A stretch of DNA of 64,000 nt from Thermodesulfobacteriota bacterium (GTDB lineage Bacteria > Desulfobacterota_D > UBA1144 > Nemesobacterales > Nemesobacteraceae), in assembly GCA_965204665.1 (NCBI GenBank), contig OZ242002.1, positions 1,433,995 to 1,497,994 on the forward strand. Direction: 5' to 3'. A program made the position numbers and the translations under genes. Below the pieces are notes generated by a model. That model was not told where the DNA came from, did not search any database, and saw only the letters and a list, made by a program, of their open reading frames with translations. Below are positions 4,656 through 61,507 of the stretch, in pieces; within the stretch, counting starts at the first letter, position 1; the number at the start of each line of letters is the position of its first letter.

Positions 4656-6092
4656 TTAGTCGGTTTGCAGATTTTTGAGGGATTCGAATTCAAACAACGC
4701 TTTTTTTCTTGCTGTCGAATGATCAACTATCTGAACTGGGTAAGATCCACGACCTGAACCTTTCCACGGTTCATGAGTATACAGGTTCGACACATTCTTG
4801 AGTTCCGGAATCCATCTCCGCACATAATCACCTTCCGGGTCGAATTTCTTTCCTTGGAGAGTCGGATTGAAAATACGAAAAAAGGGAGCGGCGTCCACCC
4901 CGCATCCCGCGACCCACTGCCAACTGACTGAGTTGTTCGCGAGGTCCGCGTCCACCAGAGTTTCGAAGAACCACTCGGCACCCCGCTGCCACGGAATTAA
5001 GAGATGTTTTACCAGGAATGACGCAGCGACCATCCGCACGCGGTTATGCATCCATCCGGTTGTCAGGAGCTGGCGCATTCCCGCGTCCACTATGGGATAA
5101 CCGGTAAGTCCTCGTTGCCAAAGGTCAAGCAACTCTTCGTTATCTTTCCAGGGGAATCGTTCAAATTCTTTCCGAAACGGCTTGTCGGGAAATTCCGGCC
5201 GGTGATAGAGAAGATGATGGGAGAATTCCCGCCAGATCAACTGACGCAAAAAGGAATCACAGTCTTCTTGAGAGCGGTTTTTCAGATTACGGCTTGCCGA
5301 GTGCCAGCAGAGCCTAGGTGAAATCTCTCCGAAATGAAGATGAGGAGAAAGCTTGGAAGTTCCGGAGACATCCGGCCGGTCGCGTTGCGTTTTATAGAGG
5401 GCCCCCGAATTTTCAAGAAACGAATCAATCCGCACAAGGGCTCCCCGTTCTCCGGGCGTCCATAAGTCGAGCCATCCCAGAGCCCGGTCGGGCTTTTGCG
5501 GAAGCAGGTTCCATGCTGAGAGAGAATCACCTCTCAAAGGTTTTTCCGGGCGGGAAATCTCTCTGGGTGCGGGAAGTGGCGAGCGGAGAGGGAGTTTTTT
5601 GAGGCACGCTCTGTAGAAAGGCGTGAAGACCCTGAAGCAGTCGCCTTTTCCGGTCGCTACCGATTCGGGAGGAAAAAGAAGACTGCCGTCGAAAGCGCGG
5701 ACCCCGATTCCAGTATCAGTTAGAACCCGTTCCACTTCCGTTTCTGTCTTTTTCGCGTGAGGTTCCGAAAGCCGGTTGAAATGGACAGCCGCAGCCCCGG
5801 TTTCGCGGGCAATTTCCGCGAGCACATCCGGAGGATTACCGCACCTGAGCAGAAGGCGATTCCCGTAGGACCCGAGAGTCTCATCAATTCCCGCGAGACT
5901 GTGGTGGAGCCACCATCTGCTTGCTCCCCGCGGAGCCCAGGGGTCGGAGTCTCCGTCTTCGAGTATGTAGACCGCTATCACAGGTCTTGATTTTTCTGCG
6001 GCCGCGAAAAGCGCAGGATTATCCGTAACCCTGAGGTCTTTTCGGAACCAGTGAATTACAGGATGTTCTTTTTCCCCTGTATGATTCATCAT
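4656..6092 (-). CDS. phr: Deoxyribodipyrimidine photolyase (class I CPD photolyase/cryptochrome family)
   Basis: 478 aa. N-terminal IHWFRKDLRVTDNPAL and FAD-binding C-terminal WQWVAGCGVDAAPFFRIFNPTLQGKKFDPEGDYVRRWIPEL. Confidence 0.9.
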   Translation of the reverse strand: MMNHTGEKEHPVIHWFRKDLRVTDNPALFAAAEKSRPVIAVYILEDGDSDPWAPRGASRWWLHHSLAGIDETLGSYGNRLLLRCGNPPDVLAEIARETGAAAVHFNRLSEPHAKKTETEVERVLTDTGIGVRAFDGSLLFPPESVATGKGDCFRVFTPFYRACLKKLPLRSPLPAPREISRPEKPLRGDSLSAWNLLPQKPDRALGWLDLWTPGERGALVRIDSFLENSGALYKTQRDRPDVSGTSKLSPHLHFGEISPRLCWHSASRNLKNRSQEDCDSFLRQLIWREFSHHLLYHRPEFPDKPFRKEFERFPWKDNEELLDLWQRGLTGYPIVDAGMRQLLTTGWMHNRVRMVAASFLVKHLLIPWQRGAEWFFETLVDADLANNSVSWQWVAGCGVDAAPFFRIFNPTLQGKKFDPEGDYVRRWIPELKNVSNLYTHEPWKGSGRGSYPVQIVDHSTARKKALFEFESLKNLQTD

Positions 6093-6199
6093 CTGCCTTC
6101 ATTTCTCGGGATTCGGTAAGATTATACCGAAGTAGAACCGGGTGCCGCGTGACCGGCATCCGACATTAATGTGCTATTAAAGAAGGCGAGGTCCGTCCC

Positions 6200-7108
6200 A
6201 TGTCCCGTCCGGATGCAGAGAAACAAGGTTTCAAGTCAGGATTCATTTCCGTGGTCGGAAGACCGAACGTAGGCAAATCCACGCTTGTAAATTCAATTGT
6301 CGGAGAGAAAGTCTCCGCGGTTTCCGATAAGCCCAGCACCACCAGGAACAAGATAGTCGGCGTGAAAACCTTCGAGGATTCACAGCTGATTTTCCTTGAT
6401 ACACCCGGGGTTTACAGGGAAAAAACGAGACTCGGAAAATCCATGGCCCGCGCAGTCAGCAGCGCTCTCGCCGACTCGGACCTGATCATGTTCGTAACGG
6501 ATGTGGAAAAACCGCTCGGTATTGCGGACAAGGGTATACTTGAGATGCTCGCGAAGCCCCCTGTTCTTGTTATAAACAAGATTGACAGGATCAAAAAATC
6601 AAAACTGCTTCCTGTCCTTTCCGCTGCGGACGGATTTACCGGGAAATTCCTTGAACTCGTCCCCGTCAGCGCTCTTGACGGAGACGGCGTTGTGCAGATT
6701 GTGGAACTGCTCAAAAAGTATCTGCCCGAAGGACCAATGTATTTTCCTAGGGAAGTTTTCACCGACCAGCCGGAAGTTTTCTACATAGCGGAGATTGTAA
6801 GGGAGAAGATATTCAATCTCACCCGAAAAGAGATTCCCTACAAAGTGGCGGTTCTGGTCACGGGTTTCAGCGAGGACGCGAAAAAAAACCTGATAAGCGT
6901 GAACGCGGAAATCTATGTTGAGAGAAAGAGCCATAAAAGAATCGTCATAGGAAAGGGCGGAGCGATACTCAAACGGGTGGGCTCGGAGGCGAGAGCCGAG
7001 ATTGAAAGCACTCTGGGTACAAGACTGTTTCTTGATCTTTATGTGAGAGTAAAGAAGAACTGGACAGGAAACGATTTTCTGATAAGAGAGTTCGGCTACG
7101 GGGAGTGA
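6200..7108 (+). CDS. era: GTPase Era
   Basis: G1 motif GRPNVGKSTL, G3 DTPG, NKID G4 motif; C-terminal KH domain. 302 aa. Confidence 0.95.
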   Translation: MSRPDAEKQGFKSGFISVVGRPNVGKSTLVNSIVGEKVSAVSDKPSTTRNKIVGVKTFEDSQLIFLDTPGVYREKTRLGKSMARAVSSALADSDLIMFVTDVEKPLGIADKGILEMLAKPPVLVINKIDRIKKSKLLPVLSAADGFTGKFLELVPVSALDGDGVVQIVELLKKYLPEGPMYFPREVFTDQPEVFYIAEIVREKIFNLTRKEIPYKVAVLVTGFSEDAKKNLISVNAEIYVERKSHKRIVIGKGGAILKRVGSEARAEIESTLGTRLFLDLYVRVKKNWTGNDFLIREFGYGE

Positions 7109-7123
7109 CAAACTGAGTTTATT

Positions 7124-7927
7124 TTATTCTCCCCGGAAAACAGGCTTTCTTTTTTCCATAAACGCCTTTCTGCCCTCACGGTAGTCTCTGCTTCCGCACA
7201 CCTCCCGGATGAGGGATTCCAGAACTGCCCGTTCACTTTCTGAAAGAGTTTGTTTCTCCTCCCAGATATTCATCATTTTCTTCATGGAGATCATGGAAAG
7301 AGGAGCGTTTTCAATTATGCTTTCCGTTGCTGAACGGACGAACTCTCCAAGTTTTTCTTTTTTCACCAAATGATTTACAAGCCCGTTTTCCAGAGCCCTT
7401 CGCGCAGTTATGGGTCGTGCGGTCAGAAAAAGTTCTCTTGTAAGTCCCGGCCCGATCAGATTGAGAAACTTCTTTATCCCCTCGTAAGAGTAGGTCACTC
7501 CGAGTTTTGCCGGGGGCATGGCGAACTTCGCATCGTCTGCTGATATTCTGATGTCGCATGCGACCGCAAGTTCGAGTCCCGCCCCGAACGCATGACCGTT
7601 TATCATGGCCACCACGGGAAGAGGACAGTTTCTCACCGCGCGCATCGCCTGCGTCAGAGGGTGATTCTCCCTTCTGTAGATATCTTCATCCGATATAGCC
7701 TTTATGTCGTATCCGGAGCAGAACGCCTCGTCTCCATTCCCCGTTACGATTATGCATCTGACGGCCGAGTCGCTGCCGAGTTTCTCCAACTCCGAGGCGA
7801 TCATTCTGAGAGCGCCTGCGGAGAGGGAGTTTCTTGTATCCGGACGGTTTATAGCGAGAGTTGCTGTGCCTCCCTCTATTTCTACGAGAATTTCCTTGTC
7901 CGCCGCCATGGGGAAATTATATATCAT
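7124..7927 (-). CDS. Enoyl-CoA hydratase/isomerase (crotonase family)
   Basis: 267 aa. ATLAINRPDTRNSL...CIIVTGNGDEAFCSGYDIKA...MINGHAFGAGLELAVACDIRI are typical crotonase-fold motifs. Confidence 0.8.
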   Translation of the reverse strand: MIYNFPMAADKEILVEIEGGTATLAINRPDTRNSLSAGALRMIASELEKLGSDSAVRCIIVTGNGDEAFCSGYDIKAISDEDIYRRENHPLTQAMRAVRNCPLPVVAMINGHAFGAGLELAVACDIRISADDAKFAMPPAKLGVTYSYEGIKKFLNLIGPGLTRELFLTARPITARRALENGLVNHLVKKEKLGEFVRSATESIIENAPLSMISMKKMMNIWEEKQTLSESERAVLESLIREVCGSRDYREGRKAFMEKRKPVFRGE

Positions 7928-8076
7928 CGCTGTTTCGTGTCTAAACTCCGCCGCTCGAAGATCTTTCTGTCTTAACGCCGAAAACCGTCAGGTTAGACGG
8001 TCATGAATCCTGCTAAGAACGGAGTTGTTTCTCCGTACGGGTAACTCCTGCCGTTCGATCACGGCGTAATCTATTC

Positions 8077-8367
8077 TTGAACCATCATTCCGACGGGAGG
8101 TTTGTCGCCTGCAGTGCGGGAAGTTGTCCGCGGGGTGAAATCAATCCCCAAGCACTCAATCTCCTACTGCAGCGCGGACATGGTACGGAGTATCTGCGCT
8201 CCAAGTCATGGAAAGAGTTCGAGTCGGAAGACGTGCCCGTCATGGATTTTGTATTTACTGTGTGCGACGATGCTGCGGGAGAAACCTGTCCTCTCCGGCC
8301 CGGAAAACCTGTAACGGCCCACTGGCGGCTTGCAGACCCCTCGGATATCGAGGGCAACTACCAATGA
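8077..8367 (+). pseudogene. ArsC/LMW-PTP-family arsenate reductase fragment (N-terminal P-loop missing)
   Basis: Retains YSAG-like FVACSAGS and the distal Cys pair VFTVCDDAAGETCP...HW..DP. No CX5R P-loop is encoded in any upstream frame (in-frame TAA at 8014). The ORF starts at TTG. Confidence 0.4.
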
Positions 8368-8603
8368 GCGGCGGAACTTTTACCGAGGCGTATCTTTTGT
8401 CGGAGGGGCGTATAAAGGCGTTTCTCTCGCTTGATTTTGAATCTCTCCCGAATGAGCAACTTGAGAAAAGTCTCGGGGAAATCGGTGCATTCAGATAGTT
8501 TTTCCACCTGTCCTCTTTATGTTTTCCGATTCACCGGGTGGTTCGGGGTTATGGGCGGTCTGATAAAACACAGCGGGTTTTACGAAAAAGTCGCGATTTG
8601 ATC

Positions 8604-8924
8604 TCAATCGGGAGATTCTTCCTTTCCTGAAACCATTTCCATGAAATCCGTTTCCTGCAGTATTCGTATCGGTTGTCCTTTCGCTATGAGTTCTTCCGCT
8701 CTTTTTTCTTTTGAAGTTTTCCTGTGCTCTCTGCGACTGCGGCCGTCATAGTTCCCGGATACCGGAACAGTAGTTTTTGTCGTCACATTTTCTTCTACTC
8801 CGTGTCCGTGGATAACTGCAATCGCAGATGCCTGCTTCCCTCTGATCGACAGCGGGCCGGTGAAAACGACTGTTTCTCCGATTTTATATTCTGCGCCGGG
8901 AGCGGAAGGTTCCGGATATTTCAT
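8604..8924 (-). CDS. BRCT-domain protein, translationally coupled to the upstream exonuclease
   Basis: GETVVFTGPLS...KGQPIRILQETDFMEMV resembles the C-terminal BRCT domain of NAD-dependent ligases and BRCT-exonucleases. ATGA overlap with the exonuclease stop. Confidence 0.5.
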   Translation of the reverse strand: MKYPEPSAPGAEYKIGETVVFTGPLSIRGKQASAIAVIHGHGVEENVTTKTTVPVSGNYDGRSRREHRKTSKEKRAEELIAKGQPIRILQETDFMEMVSGKEESPD

Positions 8925-9514
8925 TTTAGAGCGGGTCTGCGGCGATTTTTTCGCTGAAGCACCTTGAGCAGTTCTTCAAAGCGGAAGTCTGTCTCCGAGC
9001 ATGCTCTGAGTACTATTTCCGCTGACACTCTTGCGTCTTCCCCCGCGTCATGATGGTTGAATGAGATTTCAAGGTCGCCTGCGATATTTCCGAGGTTGTA
9101 CCCTCCGGAGGCGTATTTCTCCGGCCAGGCGCGTCTTGCAACCTGCGCGCTGTCGATCCATGCTTTATAACTGAGAGTTTTTCCGTAGAGTTCACAGGCT
9201 TTCTGAATCGCCCTGCGGTCAAAAAAAGTGTGGCTTACAACGGTGCCTTCCAGATATTCGGCGACTTTGTCGTATATATCCTCAAAGCCGGGAGAGTCCG
9301 CCACCATGCCGGATGTTATGCCGTGAACCCCTATATTCCCGGGGTGGAAATAATCCCCCGGGTCTACAAGTTGTGTCCATAACTCTGTTATTTCAGATGA
9401 CCTGACTACCGCAATCCCTATCTGGCAGATGCTCGAGACATCCGGGTTCGCCGTTTCCACATCAACCGCTACAAAATCTTGCGGCCGCGCTGATAAGATT
9501 TTTCTGTTCAGCAT
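8921..9514 (-). CDS. DnaQ-like DEDDh 3'-5' exonuclease
   Basis: Exo I motif FVAVDVETAN, Exo III HHDAGEDARVSAEI. 197 aa. Confidence 0.8.
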   Translation of the reverse strand: MLNRKILSARPQDFVAVDVETANPDVSSICQIGIAVVRSSEITELWTQLVDPGDYFHPGNIGVHGITSGMVADSPGFEDIYDKVAEYLEGTVVSHTFFDRRAIQKACELYGKTLSYKAWIDSAQVARRAWPEKYASGGYNLGNIAGDLEISFNHHDAGEDARVSAEIVLRACSETDFRFEELLKVLQRKNRRRPALK

Positions 9515-9570
9515 TTTTTATACTTTAGCGGCATCAGACATTGCAGTGCGGTGACCGAATACGGCGGATC

Positions 9571-10604
9571 CTAGGAATTCTCACGCCTTTGGGCTTGTTC
9601 TCGTTCGGGTGCATACGCAATTTCATGTCGGGACAACCCCTTGTGCCGACGCACATTGAGGGCTTTCCACTCCAGAAGCGGTTGGACCTGGATGCGTTTT
9701 TGGAGGGATGAATCCGAGGTCAGGATCGTCGCGTCGATTTCACCTTTGTCCAACAGAAGGTCGAGGAATGCCTGCTCGGCATCGGTAAACGGCAGCAGAA
9801 CGGACAGAGCTTTCTTGGTCTCCCCCAGAATTTGCGCCCCGTATTCCGCGGGCGACGCCTGTTTTTCTGGCTGACGGACTCGGAGAGTGGGACCGAGTTG
9901 TCTTGCCAGTTCCGATTCATCGTAGTCGGCATCGTCAATAGCAATGGTTCTCCAGTCCTTGCGGTTCATCGCCCCGTATACGAAGAAGGCGATGCGGAGC
10001 CGCTCGCGTTGAAGCGTGTCCGTATCAAGTATGCGATGACAATCGAACAGATCTCTCGCCTGTTTGCGGGAAAACAGCGCCGAGAGCTTGCCGGCCGCAA
10101 GTTCATGAAGGTCGAGAAGGGGAACATCTTTGGCCTGATTGTCCCCGAGCGGATGTGAATCGGCTTGGGGAATATCCCAAAGCGGTTGTCTGAACATGAA
10201 ATTCAAATCGACCTCCAGGCTCCCGGATTGCCAGGTGTAGCTCGGGTAACTCAACCGCCACTTCCCTACTGCGTGTTCGCCCGGCGTCCTCCTGACCGTG
10301 AACCCCTCACGGGAGAAGACCGCCTGGGCCGCATGCTCGATTCTCGGCCTCTCCTCCGGCATTTCCTCGCGCTCCAGCGCGCCGCGATGTAATTCAGGTC
10401 GATGTCCACGGACAACCGGGGATGGCGGAGGACGAACAGATTCAGGGCCGTGCCGCCCTTAAGGACCCATCTTCCCTTGAGCGACGGGTGCCTGTTCAGA
10501 GCGTTCAGCAGATTCATCAGACAGAAAACTTTCTCGACCACCTCCGCGTTGAATCCGTTGGCTCCGGCCACGGGAAGGATCTCCGAGGCGGAAAATCTCA
10601 CCAT
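9571..10604 (-). pseudogene. AbiEii/AbiGii-family nucleotidyltransferase toxin (DUF1814), frameshifted
   Basis: The N-terminal nucleotidyltransferase motif LKGGTALNLF...RLSVDIDLNY is in ORF 10266-10604. The rest of the protein is in ORF 9571-10362, in another frame, with a ~96-nt overlap. GC-rich relative to flanks. Confidence 0.6.
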
Positions 10605-12246: not shown

Positions 12247-12765
12247 ATGGAGACGAGCAGAGTGCCTTTATACGAATACGAATGCGAAAGTTGTATGGAG
12301 CGGTATAACAGGGACATAGACAACCTTGTCGGCAAACTTACAAAAACCAACGCTGCCGACATATTCAGGAAAAATAAAAACTTCTGCTATATTTCGGTCA
12401 CGCGGACAAAGAGCGGAAAACAGGTTTTCGAGTTCGGAGAAAAAAATGCGGCGGGAACGAGAAGGTTTCGTTACTCCCTTGAAAGCGGCAAGGTGCTTTA
12501 TCTTGAATTGAAGAATTTCCGCTTCGACCATCTTGTGTACGGAGAGCAGGACCGGGATGATGCCGTATGTCCCCTATGTGATGATGCCGCTTCGGTAAGA
12601 AGGGTTTTTTCAACATTCAAGGCCATATTTGATGACAAGAACAAAAGAGCGCCGAGGCCGGGAGATGATCTTCGCTGGCACCTTGAATACAAACAGCAGA
12701 AAGACGAGGAAATAGCGAGTGACTGGGTGGGACAGGATCACCTGGGTCAGTATTTCAACAGATAG
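12247..12765 (+). CDS. FmdB-type zinc-ribbon protein with a ~90-aa insertion between the Cys knuckles (paralog 1)
   Basis: MPLYEYECESC...(~95 aa)...CPLCDD. The probable true start is the GTG at 12262 giving MPLYEYEC; RBS GGAGAC upstream. Confidence 0.6.
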   Translation: METSRVPLYEYECESCMERYNRDIDNLVGKLTKTNAADIFRKNKNFCYISVTRTKSGKQVFEFGEKNAAGTRRFRYSLESGKVLYLELKNFRFDHLVYGEQDRDDAVCPLCDDAASVRRVFSTFKAIFDDKNKRAPRPGDDLRWHLEYKQQKDEEIASDWVGQDHLGQYFNR

Positions 12766-12775
12766 GAGAGAGCAG

Positions 12776-13258
12776 ATGCCGCTTTACGAATTCGAGTGCA
12801 TAAAATGCAGAAACAACATTGAAAAATCCCTCAAAGTGCTTGAAAAAAAAACAGATAAACAGACTGTGAAAGGTCTGGTCCAGAAACACGATAATATCCA
12901 CGTGATAGAGGTTGTTGATCTCGAGGGGGAGAAGATACTGGCGAAGCATGGAAAAAAAGGAAAAAATTCGGTGTTTCGGGATTTTTATCTGAATGAAGGA
13001 ACGGTGCTTGCCCTTTTCAACATGCGGAACTACAGATTCTCCGAGCTCATATACGCCGAAGGTGATGAAAAAAACGTGGAGTGTCGTTGTGGGGAGCGGA
13101 AAAAAGTGGAAAAGGTGTTCTCGACTTTTTCCTTTACGAAGGACCTTTCCACCGATATGCCCAAGCCGGACCTCTCGAACCTACCGCCTTCGGTAAGAAA
13201 CAGAACCCATATCGGTGAATATATAGAGGAAAAGGACAGACCGAAAAAGAATAGATAG
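12776..13258 (+). CDS. FmdB-type zinc-ribbon protein paralog 2 (second knuckle degenerate, CRC)
   Basis: MPLYEFECIKC...(~90 aa)...VECRCGERKKVEKVFSTFSF. Clear paralog of the upstream gene (YRFSELIYAEGDEKNVEC vs FRFDHLVYGEQDRDDAVC). RBS AGGAGAG lies 7 nt upstream of the ATG at 12776. Confidence 0.6.
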   Translation: MPLYEFECIKCRNNIEKSLKVLEKKTDKQTVKGLVQKHDNIHVIEVVDLEGEKILAKHGKKGKNSVFRDFYLNEGTVLALFNMRNYRFSELIYAEGDEKNVECRCGERKKVEKVFSTFSFTKDLSTDMPKPDLSNLPPSVRNRTHIGEYIEEKDRPKKNR

Positions 13259-17286: not shown

Positions 17287-19031
17287 GTGAGCATTCTAAT
17301 AAAAACTGTGCGTGTTTCAGGATTTCGCGGGCTGGAAAATCTACAGGTGGATCTGGAGCGGACAACTGTTTTAACTGGAATGAATAATACAGGGAAGACA
17401 TCGTTTCTAAAGGCAATACAGATAGCATTGGGCAATCAGTTTATTTCTCCCGACGACTTTTTCATCCGTGATAATAGCAGTTGTGAGCGAATTACGATTG
17501 ATCTGCTTATTGTGCCTGTAGACATCGATGGTTCTGATGTCGACGATTTCTCCGAAGATTGGGAAGTGTTGCTGACCACCGACAGAATTAGAACGGACGG
17601 TATAAAAAACTTCCTGCCTCTAAGGACGATTTGTACTCTTGATTCAACGAACAGCAGTTATAAAATGCAACAATTCATCTTATCAGGTTGGCCGGAATTT
17701 AATGGTAATAACGATTGGCATAAACATGACGATGGTAAAAAAACACGCTTCCATTTCGAGGAAATCCCCTTTTTTATATGGACGCCCAGCGCGACATTAT
17801 GGAGGATACTAGACAAAAAAGTTCATATCTTGGAAAAATGTTGGCCAATATTGAATATTCGGACGCGGATATTGACGAGATAGAAACGCAGATCAAACAG
17901 TTGAACGAGAAAGCCGTAAGTAGCAGTGATGTTCTCCGTAATATTAAAGATACTCTTAAAGACTTAGATTCAGCGATGGGCAGCCAAAGCCATGGTATTG
18001 AGATAACTCCCTTCACTAAGAAAATACGCGATTTGAACAAAGGGATGAGTATCTACTACGGCGACAACAAGGACAGTTTTTCTATGGAGTACCATGGAAT
18101 GGGCACTAGAAGCTGGTCTTCTCTTTTGACTCTAAAGTCCTTTATCAACCAACTTTCCTCTCAAGCAGAGAACAAGAACAACGTGTTTTTCCCACTGCTG
18201 GCCGTAGAAGAACCGGAGGCGCACCTGCATCCGAATGCACAAAAAAAGTTGTACGGGCAAATAAATAACATCGCCGGTCAGAAAATCATTTCAACCCATT
18301 CCCCGTATATTGCTGCTGCTGCGGATATTAAGCAAATTCGAAATTTTTATAAAAGTGAAAAGGTGAATTGTGGCCGTATTAAGATTGATGCCTCGAATAA
18401 GGAAGACATAAGAAAAATAGAGCGTCGGGTGATTAGCCGCAGGGGTGAAATGTTTTTCTCGAAGTTGATCGTGTTTTTTGAAGGGGAAACCGAGGAGCAG
18501 GCATTACCGGTATTTTTCCGGAAATATTTCAGTAGAACCCATGTTGAAGTCGGTTTGGATTTCGTTGGAGTAGGCGGTTATACAAACTATCTTCCCTTTA
18601 TTAGATTCGCCGAAGATCTGGGCATTCCCTGGTTGATTCTCTCAGATGCTGAACAAAAGGCGAAAACGAATGTTTCGGAACAATTTCAGAAATGCAACAC
18701 ACAGAAAAATCTCAATGAAGTTGTTCTTTATTTAGATGGGAGCAACAATTTTGAGCGTCAACTAATTGCTGATGGATTTCAGGATGAAATTAGAAAGAGT
18801 ATTCTTGGTTTTTATGATTACGACAACGAACAAAATAGGGCAGACAGAGAGCAAAAAGTCGAAAGCTATACCGACGATGAACTTTATGAAACCATCAAGA
18901 AAAATAAGACGAAGTACGGCCCCGCCGTTGCAGAAAAAATCATAGAGAGCGGCAAAGAGTTGCCGCCGAAGATTGTAACCCTCTTCGAAAAAGTAAAGTC
19001 CATCCTTAAGTTAGGGGGAGTTGATGTATGA
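17287..19031 (+). pseudogene. gajA: OLD-family ABC-ATPase/Toprim nuclease (GajA-like), split by a 1-nt frameshift
   Basis: Walker A GMNNTGKTS in ORF 17287-17883. Q-loop-like LFYMDAQRD, Walker B LLAVEEPEAHLHP and the Toprim region (VFFEGETEEQ...LILSDAE) are in ORF 17778-19031, in another frame. The overlap contains A7, C4 and T6 homopolymers (17737-17775). Confidence 0.7.
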
Positions 19032-20908
19032 CTTCTCAAGTCGAATTGTCAGAAAAACAACGATCCATTGTTTATGCCGGTCCTGGTCCGGTCTGTGTCA
19101 AGGCCAGTGCTGGCAGCGGTAAAACGCGGGTGCTCACTCAACGCATCAGATATCTACTCAAGCAGTCCAACAAGAAAATATTAGCCTTGACCTTTACCAA
19201 CAAAGCCGGTCAGGAGATCAAGGAAAGACTAAGCGATATTTCTGATATTGATAACAGAACTTTTATAGGTACATTCCACAGTTTTTGCCAATCAATCTTG
19301 GAAAGTCACGGGAAATTGATTGGTTACTCCACAATGCCGCACATATTTGAAGATGAGGCAGATAGACTTGAACTTGTTGAAAGCGCAATCAGCCAAGTTC
19401 CGTCCTATGCAAGCGTTTACAGGAAAAAAGAGGGAAAGCGACGGAGAGACTTTTGCTATCGGGCATTACATTTTGTATCCAAAGTAAAACGAGACCTGAT
19501 CAGTGAATCTGATATAGAGAACCACACGAACGATGACAACATCGTTCTGCTATATCGTAACTATCAAGAACTTTTGAAAGTACAGAATGCTATAGATTTC
19601 GATGACCTATTGCTGGAAGCCTACAATTTGTTCGCCAGTTATTCAAGAATTGCTGCTTTATATCGCCGCAGTTTTTTCGCGATTTGTGTAGATGAAGCTC
19701 AAGACCTTAACAAAGCCCAGTATCAGTTTCTGAAAACTTTAACCGGTGACGAATTCAACAACATTCTGATGGTGGGTGACCCCAACCAATCCATTTTTCA
19801 CTTTAACGGCTCCTCACCGGATTATATGAACAAGTTTTTTGTTGAGGATTTTACTTCAAAAACTGTGGAGTTGACTGAAAATTTCCGATCATCTGTCGAA
19901 GTACTGAAGGCTGCGGAAAAGATTATCCCTGAGGCGGAATATATCGAGGGAACCGTAAAGCGGGGAATATTTGAGATGCATGAAAAAGAGAATGAAACGG
20001 CTGAGGCTGAGTGGGTGGCATCAAAAATTCAAGAAATATTAAGTATGAAGAAACATAGTGACATTGAAGGTGATATTTGCCCGGAGAAGATAGCAGTACT
20101 TGCTAGAAACAAGTATTTGTTCAAGTCCCTGGAAAAAGTTCTGAGTCAATGCTGTATTTCTTACTATTACAAAATGACGCCCGGGTCCTTGAAGTTCGAG
20201 TCCTCCGTAATGCAGGTATTCGACCTCGCTTTAAGGATCAAACTGAATTCACAAGATTTGTTGCACAAAAAACAATTATTGAAGATATTAGATCTTGACG
20301 GAAATGAAAATTCATCCCTTGCGGATATTGCAAAAACATCCGTTCGTACTGAATACAAAAAAATAATATCTCTTGTTATGTCTCTGGATGAAAACGGAGA
20401 AAATTTCAAAAGAAACCTTGAAAATTACAGAGATATGGTCTCCATTGACGACGATAATGATAAAAATATGTTGTTCAATGAGATTAACGAGTTGCTCGTC
20501 CATTGGTATAACTATGCCAAGAGCGTAGACAACACCTCGATTCATCAATTCAAGAACTCGATGGCGCTGGGGCAAACTCACCCTGCAATTCAACACTCAG
20601 GAGTTACTTTAAGCACTGTGCATACGATGAAAGGGCAGGAGTTTGATATCGTTTTTATCATAGGAATGGATGATGAAACCTTTCCGGATTATCGTGCTGT
20701 CAAAAGCGGAGGCGTAGATATGTTGCAGGAGAAGAATAACCTTTACGTTGCATTCACAAGGTCCAAGCGGTGGCTTTATATAACATGGCCTGCAAATAGA
20801 AGTATGCCTTGGGGAGATACTAAACGGCGAAAAAAATCTCGCTTCCTAGTTGGCTTTGAGTCCGAAGAAACAACTCCCAGCAGAAATCTCACGGCCGCTT
20901 TTTCCTGA
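19028..20908 (+). CDS. gajB: UvrD/PcrA/Rep-family SF1 helicase (GajB-like)
   Basis: Motif I ASAGSGKTRVL, II VDEAQDL, III GDPNQSIF, V TVHTMKGQEFDIVF, VI YVAFTRSKRWLYI. ATGA overlap with the gajA-like stop. Confidence 0.75.
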   Translation: MTSQVELSEKQRSIVYAGPGPVCVKASAGSGKTRVLTQRIRYLLKQSNKKILALTFTNKAGQEIKERLSDISDIDNRTFIGTFHSFCQSILESHGKLIGYSTMPHIFEDEADRLELVESAISQVPSYASVYRKKEGKRRRDFCYRALHFVSKVKRDLISESDIENHTNDDNIVLLYRNYQELLKVQNAIDFDDLLLEAYNLFASYSRIAALYRRSFFAICVDEAQDLNKAQYQFLKTLTGDEFNNILMVGDPNQSIFHFNGSSPDYMNKFFVEDFTSKTVELTENFRSSVEVLKAAEKIIPEAEYIEGTVKRGIFEMHEKENETAEAEWVASKIQEILSMKKHSDIEGDICPEKIAVLARNKYLFKSLEKVLSQCCISYYYKMTPGSLKFESSVMQVFDLALRIKLNSQDLLHKKQLLKILDLDGNENSSLADIAKTSVRTEYKKIISLVMSLDENGENFKRNLENYRDMVSIDDDNDKNMLFNEINELLVHWYNYAKSVDNTSIHQFKNSMALGQTHPAIQHSGVTLSTVHTMKGQEFDIVFIIGMDDETFPDYRAVKSGGVDMLQEKNNLYVAFTRSKRWLYITWPANRSMPWGDTKRRKKSRFLVGFESEETTPSRNLTAAFS

Positions 20909-41948: not shown

Positions 41949-42314
41949 CACCCCGATTTATTTTACAGCGCCCGTCCCATGGCCCTCTGTCGGTTTTTGT
42001 ACGCACCTTGGTCTATCCCCCCCCTCTCATCTCAATTTGCAAAGTCTAAGCGAGACAGGGCTGTGTTTCTCGTAACTCGCCGAGCAGGCGAACAAACAAC
42101 TGTCGCAGTGAACGGACCGGAGAAAAGAGTGTCAGTATGCAGCGTACGGTTGTTTTGATGCGTCAAGCAGACTTGAGCAACCGAGCGCGAATTGTTTCAT
42201 AACATGTCTTGGACCCGACTCGGCGTCCTCGTCCGATGTATCTGCGTATTTGCTTGAAATTATATAAAATAGTATCAGAAATGAAGATTTATATTCAAAT
42301 CTGAGCATGGAGAG

Positions 42315-47520: not shown

Positions 47521-47613
47521 GAGTAATTGCGGGATAAGTCCTTGACCGTAGTGAGTCTCTGAATAATATTAATAGTGATAAAGGATATTTCGGGAGAAAT
47601 TCTGTTTCTTTTC
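47521..47613 (+). repeat. Direct repeat copy 1 (~83% identical to 48261-48353); a diverged duplicate of the kefB promoter/5' coding end
   Basis: By-eye alignment: 93 nt, ~16 mismatches. Encodes a pseudo-start MIKDISGEILFLFAVA, resembling the kefB start MKDILGEILLLFVVAV. Confidence 0.6.
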
Positions 47614-47696
47614 GCGGTTGCGGAACGCCCGTTAAACTTCAAAGTGCAGCACTCGGGACTGCCGGACTTGCTGTTGCGCCCGCTCTGGAACCGGCA

Positions 47697-48120
47697 GGAA
47701 AAAGGAGATATTCTGCTACGATCGGACTGTTCCGGGGAGATATCACGACGCTTGAGGTCGATGCCGTCGTCAACGCCGCCAACGAGAGGCGCTCATCACC
47801 GCCGGCTACCGACTGCCGGCCCGCCATGTCATCCACACGGTCGGGCCCGTCCGGCGCGGTGTGGGTACTGAAGAAGACACGCTGCCGGCCGCCTGCTACC
47901 GCGATTGCTTTGCGTTCGCGCGGAAGTACGGTTTGGGTTCCATAGCTTTTCCCGCCATCTCCACCGGCGTTTACGGCTTCCCGCCGGACCGTGCGGCCGG
48001 CATTGCCGTCGCCGGCGCCCAGGCCCACGGCACCGGCTTCACACGCATCGTCTTCGTCTGCTTCGACGAAACGACCGAGGCACTGTACCGCGAAGAGTTG
48101 GAGACCCTCCGAACCTTCGG
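47697..48120 (+). pseudogene. Macro-domain (ADP-ribose binding/hydrolase, YmdB/DarG-like) remnant with an internal deletion and frameshift
   Basis: GDITTLEVDAVVNAANER, then in another frame GYRLPARHVIHTVGPV...SIAFPAISTGVYGFP...IVFVCFDE. About 35 aa of the Gly-rich loop region are missing. ~68% GC. Confidence 0.55.
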
Positions 48121-48260
48121 CCGCAGCTGGAGCAATGCGGTCTTGAGGGGGGGGCATCGGCTTCGAGCCGGCCCCGGACGCGCGGGGATGGTCCGGTGCG
48201 ATGGTACGGGCAGAAACATTCAGTTGTCGTGATGGAAGTTTAACGGGCGGAACGGTTGAG

Positions 48261-48353
48261 GGATAAGCCCTTGATCGGATGGAGCCCCTGAATAATATTG
48301 ATAGCTATGAAGGATATTTTGGGAGAAATTCTGCTTCTTTTCGTGGTTGCGGT
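48261..48353 (+). repeat. Direct repeat copy 2 (the functional kefB 5' region)
   Basis: See copy 1. Contains the kefB start codon at 48298. Confidence 0.6.
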
Positions 48354-52419: not shown

Positions 52420-52775
52420 GCGGTCGTCCTGTTTTTGTCCTCTGTCGTGTAGTATCGCAACGGTTCCGCTTCTTGCGGTATCCCCGGCGATCATGACTTT
52501 ACGCCGAGGGGGTTTCTCACGAACGAGGAACTCGGATTTTTTGTTGCCGTGCGGTTTGCTTCCTGATCACTTAAGTCCTAGTTCACAGACTTCCTCCGTA
52601 TTGATTATATCTGTGAATCTCTATTCGCGCACCTCGGAGAAGAAAAATTTATGGACGATGTAATATGTGAGTTTGTAAAGTAAACAAAAATTCGATATGA
52701 TGTGGGCGTTGTATTTCGTAATAACTCCGAAAATGTCGTAAAACGGATTTTCAGACCGCACAAGGAGGTTTTTAT

Positions 52776-53296
52776 ATGATTAGGAATGCGTTTCTTATTG
52801 GATTTCTGCTGCTTGGTTCCGTTGCTTGCGGGGGGGGGGCGATGACGGAGAGGCGGAAATAGAGTACGACTGCGAAGAGGTTGTCAGGATAGAACCTTTA
52901 CCTAGGGGAACCTATCCTGCAGCATTGGTGGGAGAGTGGGATTGCGAAAGTTCCGACGGTTCAAGTTCAACCCAGATTATCAGTTCTGACGGGACCTTCT
53001 TTCTCGAACTCAGTCCCGGCGACTATCCTTCTGAAGTTCGGGAAATACGGAATCAATGCGGAATCGGAACTTCACCTCCTGATATTGCCGGTCACTGGAT
53101 TGTTGATGGAACCCGAATGTGCCTTCGATACGATGTGATGCCCGGAATAATCGCATGCGGACCTTTTAGAATAAATCAGCTGGGAGAGTGGATATCTTCT
53201 CCTTCCGATGTAATAGAGTTCTATCAGTATGGACGATTAGTAACATCAAGTGCCATTGGAAGTATTCAAGGCGGCGGTCGTTGTGTAAAGAGATGA
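52776..53296 (+). CDS. Small Cys-rich lipoprotein, currently out of frame at a G10 tract just after the lipobox Cys
   Basis: RBS AAGGAGG, then ATG at 52776 encoding MIRNAFLIGFLLLGSVAC, then G10 (52830-52839). As read, the signal-peptide frame terminates at 52860. The mature-protein ORF (52826-53296) is in a different frame, and G11 would fuse them. Confidence 0.5.
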
Positions 53297-53612
53297 AGTT
53301 TTCTATTCTCAGGTTTTTCTTAACCTTGAGAATCTCATTTGTCGGAGCCTGATCACCTGTCAGTTTGATACCTCGACCTGAAGTTCAAATCAGAGTTTAG
53401 ATGGGATTGAGACTGCGGAGGGACCTTGACTGCATCAAGTTGATGCGTTGGCCGGAACTGCAGGTTTTTTTATGAGCGGGAGGTTATATCGGAAATTCAG
53501 TACGCCGGAGTTTGAGGGGTGATGTGAACCTTGATCTGCTTCGGGTTTATAGTGTAGATTAACTGTTCAGTTAAGATGCGGAAGATTTACAAGCATCTTA
53601 AAATCCAGATAT

Positions 53613-60111: not shown

Positions 60112-61452
60112 TCAGTCCACGAATTCCCGTCGGGCCGCTGTATTGCGGATTGTATCTGCTACACCGGATGACTGTAACTGAACAACATCATCGAAAGTAG
60201 TGGTTCCTGCTACGATAACGGAAATATTAACGGTGCCGGTTCCGCCGAACGTTTTGGCTCCTTGGGGGAAACCCTTGAAGCGGATCTTGTCGTTCTGTGA
60301 TGCATTAAAGTCCCTGATAGCGTCCTTCTCATTTCTGTGCTCGTATTCAAGGACGAAGATGTCGGCGCCGGCCTGGCCGTAAAGAATGTCGGCACCGGCA
60401 CCACCTGTAATAACATCATTACCACCCCCTCCAGCGAGCAGATCATTTCCGGCTTTTCCGTTAATCGTATCGTTTCCACCCAGCCCGTAAAGGTGATTTC
60501 CCAGAGCATCTCCGCTGATGGTATCATTGGCGCTAGTGGCCATAACGTTCTCAATACCTGTAAATGTAGACATTCCCCAACCATGAGTACTGCCGTCGAA
60601 AGACCCGGTGGAAAGATCAAAGGTTACAGATGTATTCACAAAATTGAAGACAGCTTGGGAATTATCCTTCAATCCCGGCAATATGGCACTTGCACTAGGT
60701 ATATTACCTATGAGCATCAAATCATTTGCAGCAGCACCACGAAGAGCAGTTCCTGTCGGGGTGCCGCCGTTAAATCTGTTATTCCCTGGTTCAGTCAGAA
60801 AAAAAACATCTCCACCGTCTCCACCGTTGAGCGTATCATTGCCGTCGCCGCCATAGAGTACGTCCCGTCCCGCATCGCCGTTGATGGTATCATCGCCGCC
60901 TGCTCCCCGGATATAATCAGCACCGTCTCCGCCGTGGATGGTATTGGCGCCGGCGGTGGCCCAGATTGTATCATCTCCGTCTCCGCCGTAGATGATGTCG
61001 TCGGTAGTTCCCGAGAGGTTGCCGTCAAGATGAGCATCAATGTGGTCATCTCCGTCTTCACCATATATCGTATCCGTGCCGGCACCGCCGCCTATCTTGT
61101 CGTTTCCGGCACCGGCGTAAACAGTATCATCGCCGTCTCCGGCATTAATCGTGTTTTTGTACTGATTTCCGCATATGACATCGTCGTCATCAGTCCCCGT
61201 GATATCATTGGAGATACCGGGCAGCGCATTTATACCGTTGCTCACGTCGCATCTGGGGTCACCGAAGGACTTTCCCTGATCTCCCTGCGGGCCCCCCGCT
61301 CCCTGTGTTCCCGGATCTCCTTTATCTCCTTTCGCCCCGTCTTTCCCTGCCGGACCTGCTGGTCCCGCAGGACCTCTATCCCCCTCACAAGCAACAAAGA
61401 AAACCGCTCCGCCGAGCAGAAACAACAAAACTAAGAAATTACGTAACTTCAT
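60112..61452 (-). CDS. Secreted lipoprotein with collagen-like (G-X-Y)13 segment followed by RTX-type Ca2+-binding beta-roll repeats
   Basis: Signal peptide with lipobox FFVAC; GPAGPAGPAGKDGAKGDKGDPGTQGAGGPQGDQG; many GGxGxDxux nonapeptides (GGDGDDTIW, GGAGNDKIGGGAGTDTIYG, GGNDTINGKAGNDLLAGGGGNDVITGGAGADILYG). Confidence 0.75.
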   Translation of the reverse strand: MKLRNFLVLLFLLGGAVFFVACEGDRGPAGPAGPAGKDGAKGDKGDPGTQGAGGPQGDQGKSFGDPRCDVSNGINALPGISNDITGTDDDDVICGNQYKNTINAGDGDDTVYAGAGNDKIGGGAGTDTIYGEDGDDHIDAHLDGNLSGTTDDIIYGGDGDDTIWATAGANTIHGGDGADYIRGAGGDDTINGDAGRDVLYGGDGNDTLNGGDGGDVFFLTEPGNNRFNGGTPTGTALRGAAANDLMLIGNIPSASAILPGLKDNSQAVFNFVNTSVTFDLSTGSFDGSTHGWGMSTFTGIENVMATSANDTISGDALGNHLYGLGGNDTINGKAGNDLLAGGGGNDVITGGAGADILYGQAGADIFVLEYEHRNEKDAIRDFNASQNDKIRFKGFPQGAKTFGGTGTVNISVIVAGTTTFDDVVQLQSSGVADTIRNTAARREFVD

Positions 61453-61480
61453 GACAAAACCTCCTTAAGCAGATGTTTTG

Positions 61481-61507
61481 ATTCTACCCCCCCCCATATG
61501 AAGTCAA
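61481..61507 (-). promoter_or_regulatory. Sigma70-like promoter TTGACT-N15-TAGAAT whose spacer contains a G9 homopolymer (minus-strand sense)
   Basis: Minus-sense reading: TTGACT tcatat GGGGGGGGG TAGAAT ...AAGGAGG-7nt-ATG of the lipoprotein gene. With 9 G the spacer is 15 nt; G11 would give the optimal 17. Confidence 0.45.

Follow-up and report, generated by a model that had tools for sequence, protein, structure and literature searches.

A poly-G tract directly after the lipobox cysteine codon: a probable slipped-strand contingency locus in a Thermodesulfobacteriota lipoprotein gene

Homopolymer contingency loci are textbook material for a few host-adapted pathogens, such as Neisseria, Campylobacter, Helicobacter, Mycoplasma and Treponema. 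In the phasomes of Neisseria and Campylobacter, long G/C runs occur in excess at the 5' ends and in the promoters of surface-protein genes, forming a translational and a transcriptional class of switches (PMC5953494). The hpuA gene of N. meningitidis, which encodes a lipoprotein, carries an intragenic poly-G tract that varies from 7G to 19G among isolates (PMC3352162). The Vlp lipoproteins of Mycoplasma hyorhinis belong to a multigene family in which each promoter contains a homopolymer; the signal peptide and 5' region are conserved, and the mature part is repetitive and variable (PMC10502178). A literature search returned nothing relevant on such a poly-G contingency set in Thermodesulfobacteriota.

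A candidate locus of this kind was analysed in the window, that is, the whole stretch of 64,000 nucleotides studied here. The features of the gene are the following:

52673..52701, plus strand: possible sigma-70-type promoter TTGTAA-17-TATGAT, from a consensus scan; no poly-G within it
52762..52768, plus strand: AAGGAGG ribosome-binding site, 7 nt 5' of the ATG, read from the sequence
52776..52829, plus strand: start codon, signal peptide and lipobox, MIRNAFLIGFLLLGSVAC (18 codons; the Cys codon TGC is 52827-52829)
52830..52839, plus strand: G10 homopolymer, the proposed slipped-strand switch (ON at 8, 11 and 14; OFF as sequenced)
52841..53296, plus strand: coding sequence of the mature domain, Cys-rich and beta-rich (151 codons plus stop), in the -1 frame
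52860..52862, plus strand: premature TAG that ends the 28-aa OFF-state product, from translation of the sequence

The strong ribosome-binding site and the signal peptide named in the original prediction were both found, and an identical AAGGAGG stands 5' of the homologue in a sister genome (L001). The region 5' of the gene can be aligned with the sister species. Promoter-like sites in this region were no more numerous than in shuffled sequence, which makes 52673..52701 weak evidence of a promoter. The N-terminal sequence conforms to the PROSITE-type lipobox pattern, with a basic N-terminal residue, a hydrophobic core and the Cys; the Ser at -3 is less common. Of 38 family members compared, at least 90% share the lipobox Cys. 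With every element of a lipoprotein start in place, the N terminus is a predicted Lgt/LspA substrate.

The tract behind the Cys codon was found to consist of exactly ten G, as had been foreseen, with a C on either side, and it covers codons 19-22. As sequenced, the frame after the Cys reads GGG-AMTERRK and then TAG, so that the predicted early termination was recovered as a 28-aa ORF. A tract of G11 restores one ORF of 173 aa, in agreement with the original prediction, and G8 does likewise with 172 aa, the reading being C-GGG(G)-DDGEAEIEYDCEE. A change of tract length therefore toggles between a lipoprotein of 172-174 aa (G8, G11, G14) and the stop at 52860 (G10). The 156-aa ORF that had been described as out of frame is indeed open to 53296; the frame label '+1' attached to it was wrong, and the shift is -1 (equal to +2).

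This long ORF (52826..53296) reaches 156 aa when counted from a TTG lacking a ribosome-binding site. Expression from TTG 52826 was considered and rejected: apart from the missing ribosome-binding site, the start lies within the signal-peptide codons, and a protein with six conserved cysteines needs export. Public gene calls begin at this internal TTG, giving products of 156 and 149 aa, and the signal peptide is thereby missed.

The gene resembles hpuA of N. meningitidis and N. gonorrhoeae, whose product HpuA is the lipoprotein of the haemoglobin receptor HpuAB: both ORFs code for a lipoprotein and contain a poly-G run. There, slipped-strand ON/OFF switching makes every third length ON, and the same frame logic applies at the G10 gene. 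The protein family and function are unrelated, however, the phylum is another one, and switching is observed in hpuA whereas it is predicted here. In contrast to hpuA, the Gly linker is itself encoded by the tract, whose first G directly follows the lipobox Cys codon. The G10 gene also differs from Vlp, since the proposed switching would take place at translation and not at transcription. With the phasomes of Neisseria and Campylobacter the window shares the excess of long G/C runs, their 5' or promoter placement and the presence of both classes, although the host in this case is uncultured and known from metagenome assemblies alone.

The occurrence of such a tract by chance was evaluated from run-length statistics. 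Under an i.i.d. model, 0.04 G runs of at least 10 nt are expected in 64 kb, and an analytic extrapolation from the window's own short G/C runs gave 0.0001-0.026. The spectrum of G/C runs was bimodal, with 52 runs of 5 nt, 4 of 6, none of 7 and four of at least 8 (cumulatively 291 at 4 nt or more, 60 at 5 or more and 8 at 6 or more), unlike that of the A/T runs in the window, which decayed smoothly with length. For runs of at least 8 nt the short runs predict 0.02-0.56, as against the four observed (C8 at 42017, G8 at 48147, G10 at 52830 and C9 at 61487). The three tracts outside the lipoprotein gene, and the gene behind the last one, are as follows:

42017..42024, plus strand: C8 tract between tRNA-Asp and the gene of a 1721-aa helicase, from the run-length scan
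48147..48154, plus strand: G8 tract at the end of a decayed macro-domain gene; G10 in L007, a second contig from the same sample
60112..61452, minus strand: collagen-like/RTX-repeat lipoprotein gene, from a family match
61481..61507, minus strand: proposed second poly-G switch, TTGACT (61507-61502)-tcatat-G9 (61495-61487)-TAGAAT (61486-61481); C9 on the plus strand

The G10 tract lies above the threshold of at least 9 G/C used for phasome prediction in Neisseria (PMC5953494). GGG was found to be the rarest Gly codon in the long ORFs of the window (17%), and an all-GGG linker is therefore not predicted by codon usage.

Homopolymer length is the main residual error in long-read metagenome assemblies, and long G runs are called least reliably there. 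To judge from contig names such as ctg107562_3x_l, the present assemblies are presumably of this type, and it was considered that the true tract might be in frame (G11, for example) and the gene ON, the frameshift being a homopolymer-calling artefact. The comparison with L007, a low-coverage contig (3x), is of interest in this respect. Over 11,736 bp it showed 0 mismatches and one indel relative to the window, and that indel is a poly-G tract, G8 at 48147 in the window and G10 in L007. Low-coverage contigs thus differ from the main contig in poly-G length alone, and part of the differences in tract length between contigs could be technical. The lipoprotein tract, on the other hand, is G10 in both of these separately assembled contigs. 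Both homologues, that of the window and that of L001, stand one G away from an ON length, as an artefact might leave them, but the corrections are +1 in the window and -1 in L001, so that miscalls in opposite directions would be needed in the two genomes. Moreover, about 45 A/T runs of 7-9 nt lie within long ORFs and none of them breaks the frame, which shows that the assembly is not generally error-prone at homopolymers. On these grounds an error of assembly or consensus is unlikely. Since an in-frame G11 or G14 would still be hypermutable by the criteria applied to known phasomes, such an error would alter the current state of the gene and not the mechanism.

A search of 5.8 billion proteins retrieved four relatives of the lipoprotein, including P0001, which is the mis-started 156-aa call of the window itself. 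The closest homologue (P0002, 149 aa) shares 70% amino acid identity and is mis-started in the same way. It is encoded in the sister genome L001 (OZ220467.1, 'MAG: Thermodesulfobacteriota bacterium'), a circular sequence of 2.39 Mb, where the gene reads AAGGAGG-ATGATG...ACTGCATGT-G15-TACGGAAATAGAATATGA and is out of frame. Its tract, TGT-G15-T, follows the Cys codon directly, in the identical position and behind the same signal peptide. In both genes a single non-G base after the tract completes a GGN codon, and the ON lengths are therefore n = 2 mod 3 in both. The lengths observed, 10 (1 mod 3) in the window and 15 (0 mod 3) in L001, are two different OFF phases, which implies independent changes of length. 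Among GTDB genomes only the sister MAG was found, and no further copies or strains were found in JGI metagenomes with either a protein pattern or the flanking DNA with a variable gap.

Other members of the family do without the homopolymer. In an intact paralogue (P0003, 40% identity), the Gly residues of the linker CGGGGDDG are coded GGT GGC GGA GGT, and two distant members (P0012 and P0004) have a Cys-Gly-Gly-Gly linker in mixed GGN codons. The tract is therefore derived in this sub-branch and is not needed for the linker.

The consensus is OFF in both homologues, as it would also be in a decaying gene, and a pseudogene with a permanent inactivating frameshift in a shrinking, IS-rich genome, whose tract has no switching role, had to be weighed. 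The coding sequence after the tract points the other way. Between the window gene and P0002, dS was 1.10 and dN 0.18 (dN/dS 0.16) over 140 aligned codons, in which neither gene showed a stop or a further frameshift. To judge from this alignment, purifying selection has acted on the frame after the tract over practically the entire divergence. A ratio of 0.16 at saturated dS, with no other lesion over about 150 codons in either copy, means that this is not a dead gene. The ribosome-binding site, the ATG and the signal peptide are conserved between the two genes and intact. In addition, the copies stand in different OFF phases, so that the shifts are independent and recent, and a G run of 10-15 nt is not expected to hold a fixed length.

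Several observations speak for decay, among them the history of the locus. In the syntenic region of the sister species (L014, with strain copies L015 and L012; about 82% nucleotide identity), an M20 peptidase gene is followed by 470 bp and PepA, and the lipoprotein gene is absent (L014 13537-14007 as compared with 52445-53577 in the window). The sister region retains the 5' part including AAGGAG, which still aligns, though weakly where it enters the signal-peptide codons; then about 730 bp are missing, and this deletion has its left edge approximately at the tract, near the would-be poly-G. These 5' remnants indicate that the gene was ancestral there and was lost in the sister species, the P0002 copy sitting elsewhere. 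Deletion of the syntenic copy with only upstream remnants left also shows the gene to be dispensable, and it keeps the pseudogene reading alive. Contingency genes are usually dispensable. Further points on the side of decay are another decayed gene in the window (the macro-domain remnant described below), IS elements in the sister genome, and a third family member there (L006, about 5700-6400), which lacks its 5' end and adjoins an opposite ORF that is transposase-like by eye; this member is probably a truncated pseudogene. All in all, permanent decay of the G10 gene is very unlikely.

Long homopolymers support transcriptional slippage in bacteria, which is documented mainly for A/T runs. Stuttering of RNA polymerase or ribosomal frameshifting could give some full-length protein from an out-of-frame allele, the tract then setting the amount and not acting as a heritable switch. 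In that case the tolerance of out-of-frame alleles in the two genomes would be understandable. Yet the window needs a shift of -1 and L001 one of +1, with no conserved direction; no significant or conserved RNA structure was found 3' of the tract (z = -1.3 and -0.3), and the run is wholly absent from other family members. Slippage during expression as the role of the tract is accordingly highly improbable, although a minor contribution of transcriptional or translational slippage may exist. A programmed ribosomal frameshift or transcriptional realignment was rejected on the same observations, namely opposite shift directions, the lack of downstream structure and homologues without the run.

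The lipoprotein gene is probably a slipped-strand contingency locus, caught in the OFF state. The original prediction of a phase-variable candidate is supported by the G15 of the homologue, the dN/dS of 0.16, the linkers of other family members that lack the homopolymer, the poly-G-only indels elsewhere and the ORFs left intact by A/T runs. In the comparison of tract lengths that it had proposed, no length polymorphism was seen at the lipoprotein tract between the two contigs compared (window and L007), and the homologue in the other species has G15. In the proposed mechanism, the Gly linker right after the +1 cysteine would be written as a pure G run, in which slipped-strand mispairing during replication may add or remove G's. 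With 8, 11 or 14 G, the signal peptide and lipobox would be joined to the mature domain (ON); with other lengths, a stop would follow after 5-7 more codons, leaving a 28-aa signal-peptide stub (OFF). The G10 of the assembled population consensus would then represent OFF as the modal state of the sampled population. Reversible switching of single cells would make the population a mixture with respect to this surface or periplasmic lipoprotein. For G10 itself, we infer an in vivo origin of the length changes, their reversibility and an effect on the phenotype. The mechanism is classical; novelty lies in the host lineage, in the position of the tract right at the +2 codon of the lipoprotein and, above all, in its setting within a dense candidate poly-G phasome that includes a very large family of collagen-like lipoproteins.

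An exhaustive profile search assigned 69 representatives to the family, which are small (150-230 aa) and nearly all of which have a signal peptide, a lipobox and a Gly-rich linker. The family motifs are DCSDP..TEPLP.G..P, W.C, DGTF, W..CR.GT.PP..G.WVV and C.R.D..PG.V.C. The lipoprotein had no match in Pfam or NCBIfam. An AF2 model built with 38 sequences gave a confident all-beta domain (pLDDT 91.5; with 4 sequences the pLDDT was 39). The best Foldseek matches in the PDB, the barrels of avidin, FABP and NanoLuc, were weak (E of 1.9e-3 or higher, TM 0.30-0.37, rmsd 6-10 A). The predicted domain is thus all-beta like the small barrels of calycin type (avidins, fatty-acid-binding proteins, lipocalin-like lipoproteins), but it differs from them in that the structural matches are weak, a sequence-family match is lacking and the six conserved cysteines are not a calycin feature. 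The protein was treated as an exported, predicted disulfide-stabilised beta-domain lipoprotein.

The second lipoprotein tract of the window was found in a promoter. The module at 61481..61507 lies 28 nt 5' of the ATG of the collagen-like/RTX lipoprotein gene, and its spacer measures 15 nt, or 17 if the run were G11. With its G run between the -35 and -10 hexamers, 61481-61507 is a predicted promoter-spacer homopolymer switch. Paralogues of this gene number at least 28 on the 1.98 Mb chromosome of the window and at least 34 on the sister chromosome, and they have near-identical signal peptides, MKLRNFLV.LFLLGGAVFFAAC-EG. Copies of the family lie at L001 2840-4099, L011 5951-11188, L014 and L015 9888-11158 and about 18319-20863, and window 60112-61507, and the DNA of nine copies, at seven loci, could be read. 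A poly-G tract of 9-14 nt was present upstream in all nine readable copies, and in seven of the nine it lies within a conserved module, cgctagtcCTTGACTttgtga-Gn-TAAA(A/C)TCAAAAGA. The sister paralogues with an intact upstream context carry the same promoter module, with G11-G14. Across the modules, the spacer from TTGACT to the -10-like hexamer ranges from 15 to 24 nt.

The paralogue P0003, whose linker is free of the homopolymer, has a poly-G tract in its promoter spacer instead, TTGACTttgta-Gn-TAAGCT. Within one lipoprotein family, a poly-G tract thus follows the lipobox Cys codon in some genes and occupies the promoter spacer in another. In two co-occurring strains the P0003 promoter tract is G19 (L003 5892-5910) and G15 (L002 5896-5910). 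These two contigs are 98.7% identical, with 163 substitutions, and the promoter poly-G is the sole indel in 12.5 kb. Of the 15 listed tracts of at least 8 nt, among which the halves of an IS-split tract count as two, 13 belong to a lipoprotein gene and stand either in its promoter or at its first mature codon. The DNA sampled amounts to about 64 + 110 kb of the two chromosomes of 1.98 and 2.39 Mb.

Like Vlp, the collagen-like/RTX family is multigene, with a conserved 5' region, a repetitive mature part and a promoter homopolymer. Vlp differs in its poly-A tract and its wall-less Mollicute host, whereas the present family has poly-G, belongs to a presumably diderm organism and is several times larger (at least 28-34 copies). 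From its sequence organisation, the family looks like a variable surface lipoprotein system of the Vlp style. In the favoured reading, the G10 gene belongs to a set of poly-G switches that act on lipoprotein genes throughout the lineage; the others seen are transcriptional, with poly-G between -35 and -10.

A wider reading, which is held tentatively and with slightly less than even confidence, is that these uncultured Thermodesulfobacteriota with small genomes (2.0-2.4 Mb) possess a poly-G phasome throughout the genus, of which the G10 gene would be the visible tip. This phasome would comprise at least 28-34 collagen-like/RTX lipoproteins per genome, each with its own poly-G promoter switch, and a second, small Cys-rich family switched in the promoter or after the lipobox cysteine; surface variation in this diderm would be combinatorial and of Vlp type, and the tracts would also serve as IS targets. 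If true, it would point to a host- or predator-facing lifestyle under strong fluctuating selection. Already the probable switch at G10, together with the dozens of collagen-like lipoproteins behind poly-G promoters, would extend phase variation to a Thermodesulfobacteriota lineage that is uncultured, known from metagenomes alone and without a reported case, and would flag these proteins as the exposed, selected surface of the organism. Homopolymer lengths at such loci in long-read MAGs would be biological information, which should not be 'polished away'.

An insertion was observed in one of the promoter tracts of the collagen-like family. In L015, an ISAs1-like element (7436-9900; DDE_Tnp_1, with a 594-aa transposase) lies within the promoter poly-G of a collagen-like lipoprotein gene and parts the -35 from the -10. 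The split tract reads G10 on the left and G12 on the right, compared with an uninterrupted G13 in L014 (9888-9900). Poly-G tracts may be targets of IS insertion.

The two remaining G/C tracts of the window have other surroundings. The macro-domain remnant (47575-48243) is GC-rich, frameshifted and partly deleted, and no function was evident for the G8 at its 3' end. It is flanked by a 97-nt direct repeat of 85% identity (47527-47623 and 48256-48352), the second copy of which includes the start of a Na+/H+ exchanger gene. In the sister genome, the helicase gene is followed directly by the exchanger gene; the macro-domain segment is therefore a lineage-specific insertion, with duplication of the exchanger 5' region. 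The C8 at 42017-42024 is separated by about 70 nt from the preceding tRNA-Asp and by about 290 nt from the helicase gene that follows, which encodes a DEAD/UvrD double helicase of 1721 aa. On the minus strand, the flank of the tract (cgcttagactttg...G8) bears a faint likeness to the promoter module of the lipoprotein genes, with no gene following it, and the tract may be a relic.

Two adjacent, overlapping ORFs at 12247-13258 (172 and 179 aa) each start with a zinc-ribbon motif (Zn_ribbon_8). The second one holds the longest A run of the window (A9, 12843-12851), which is in frame.
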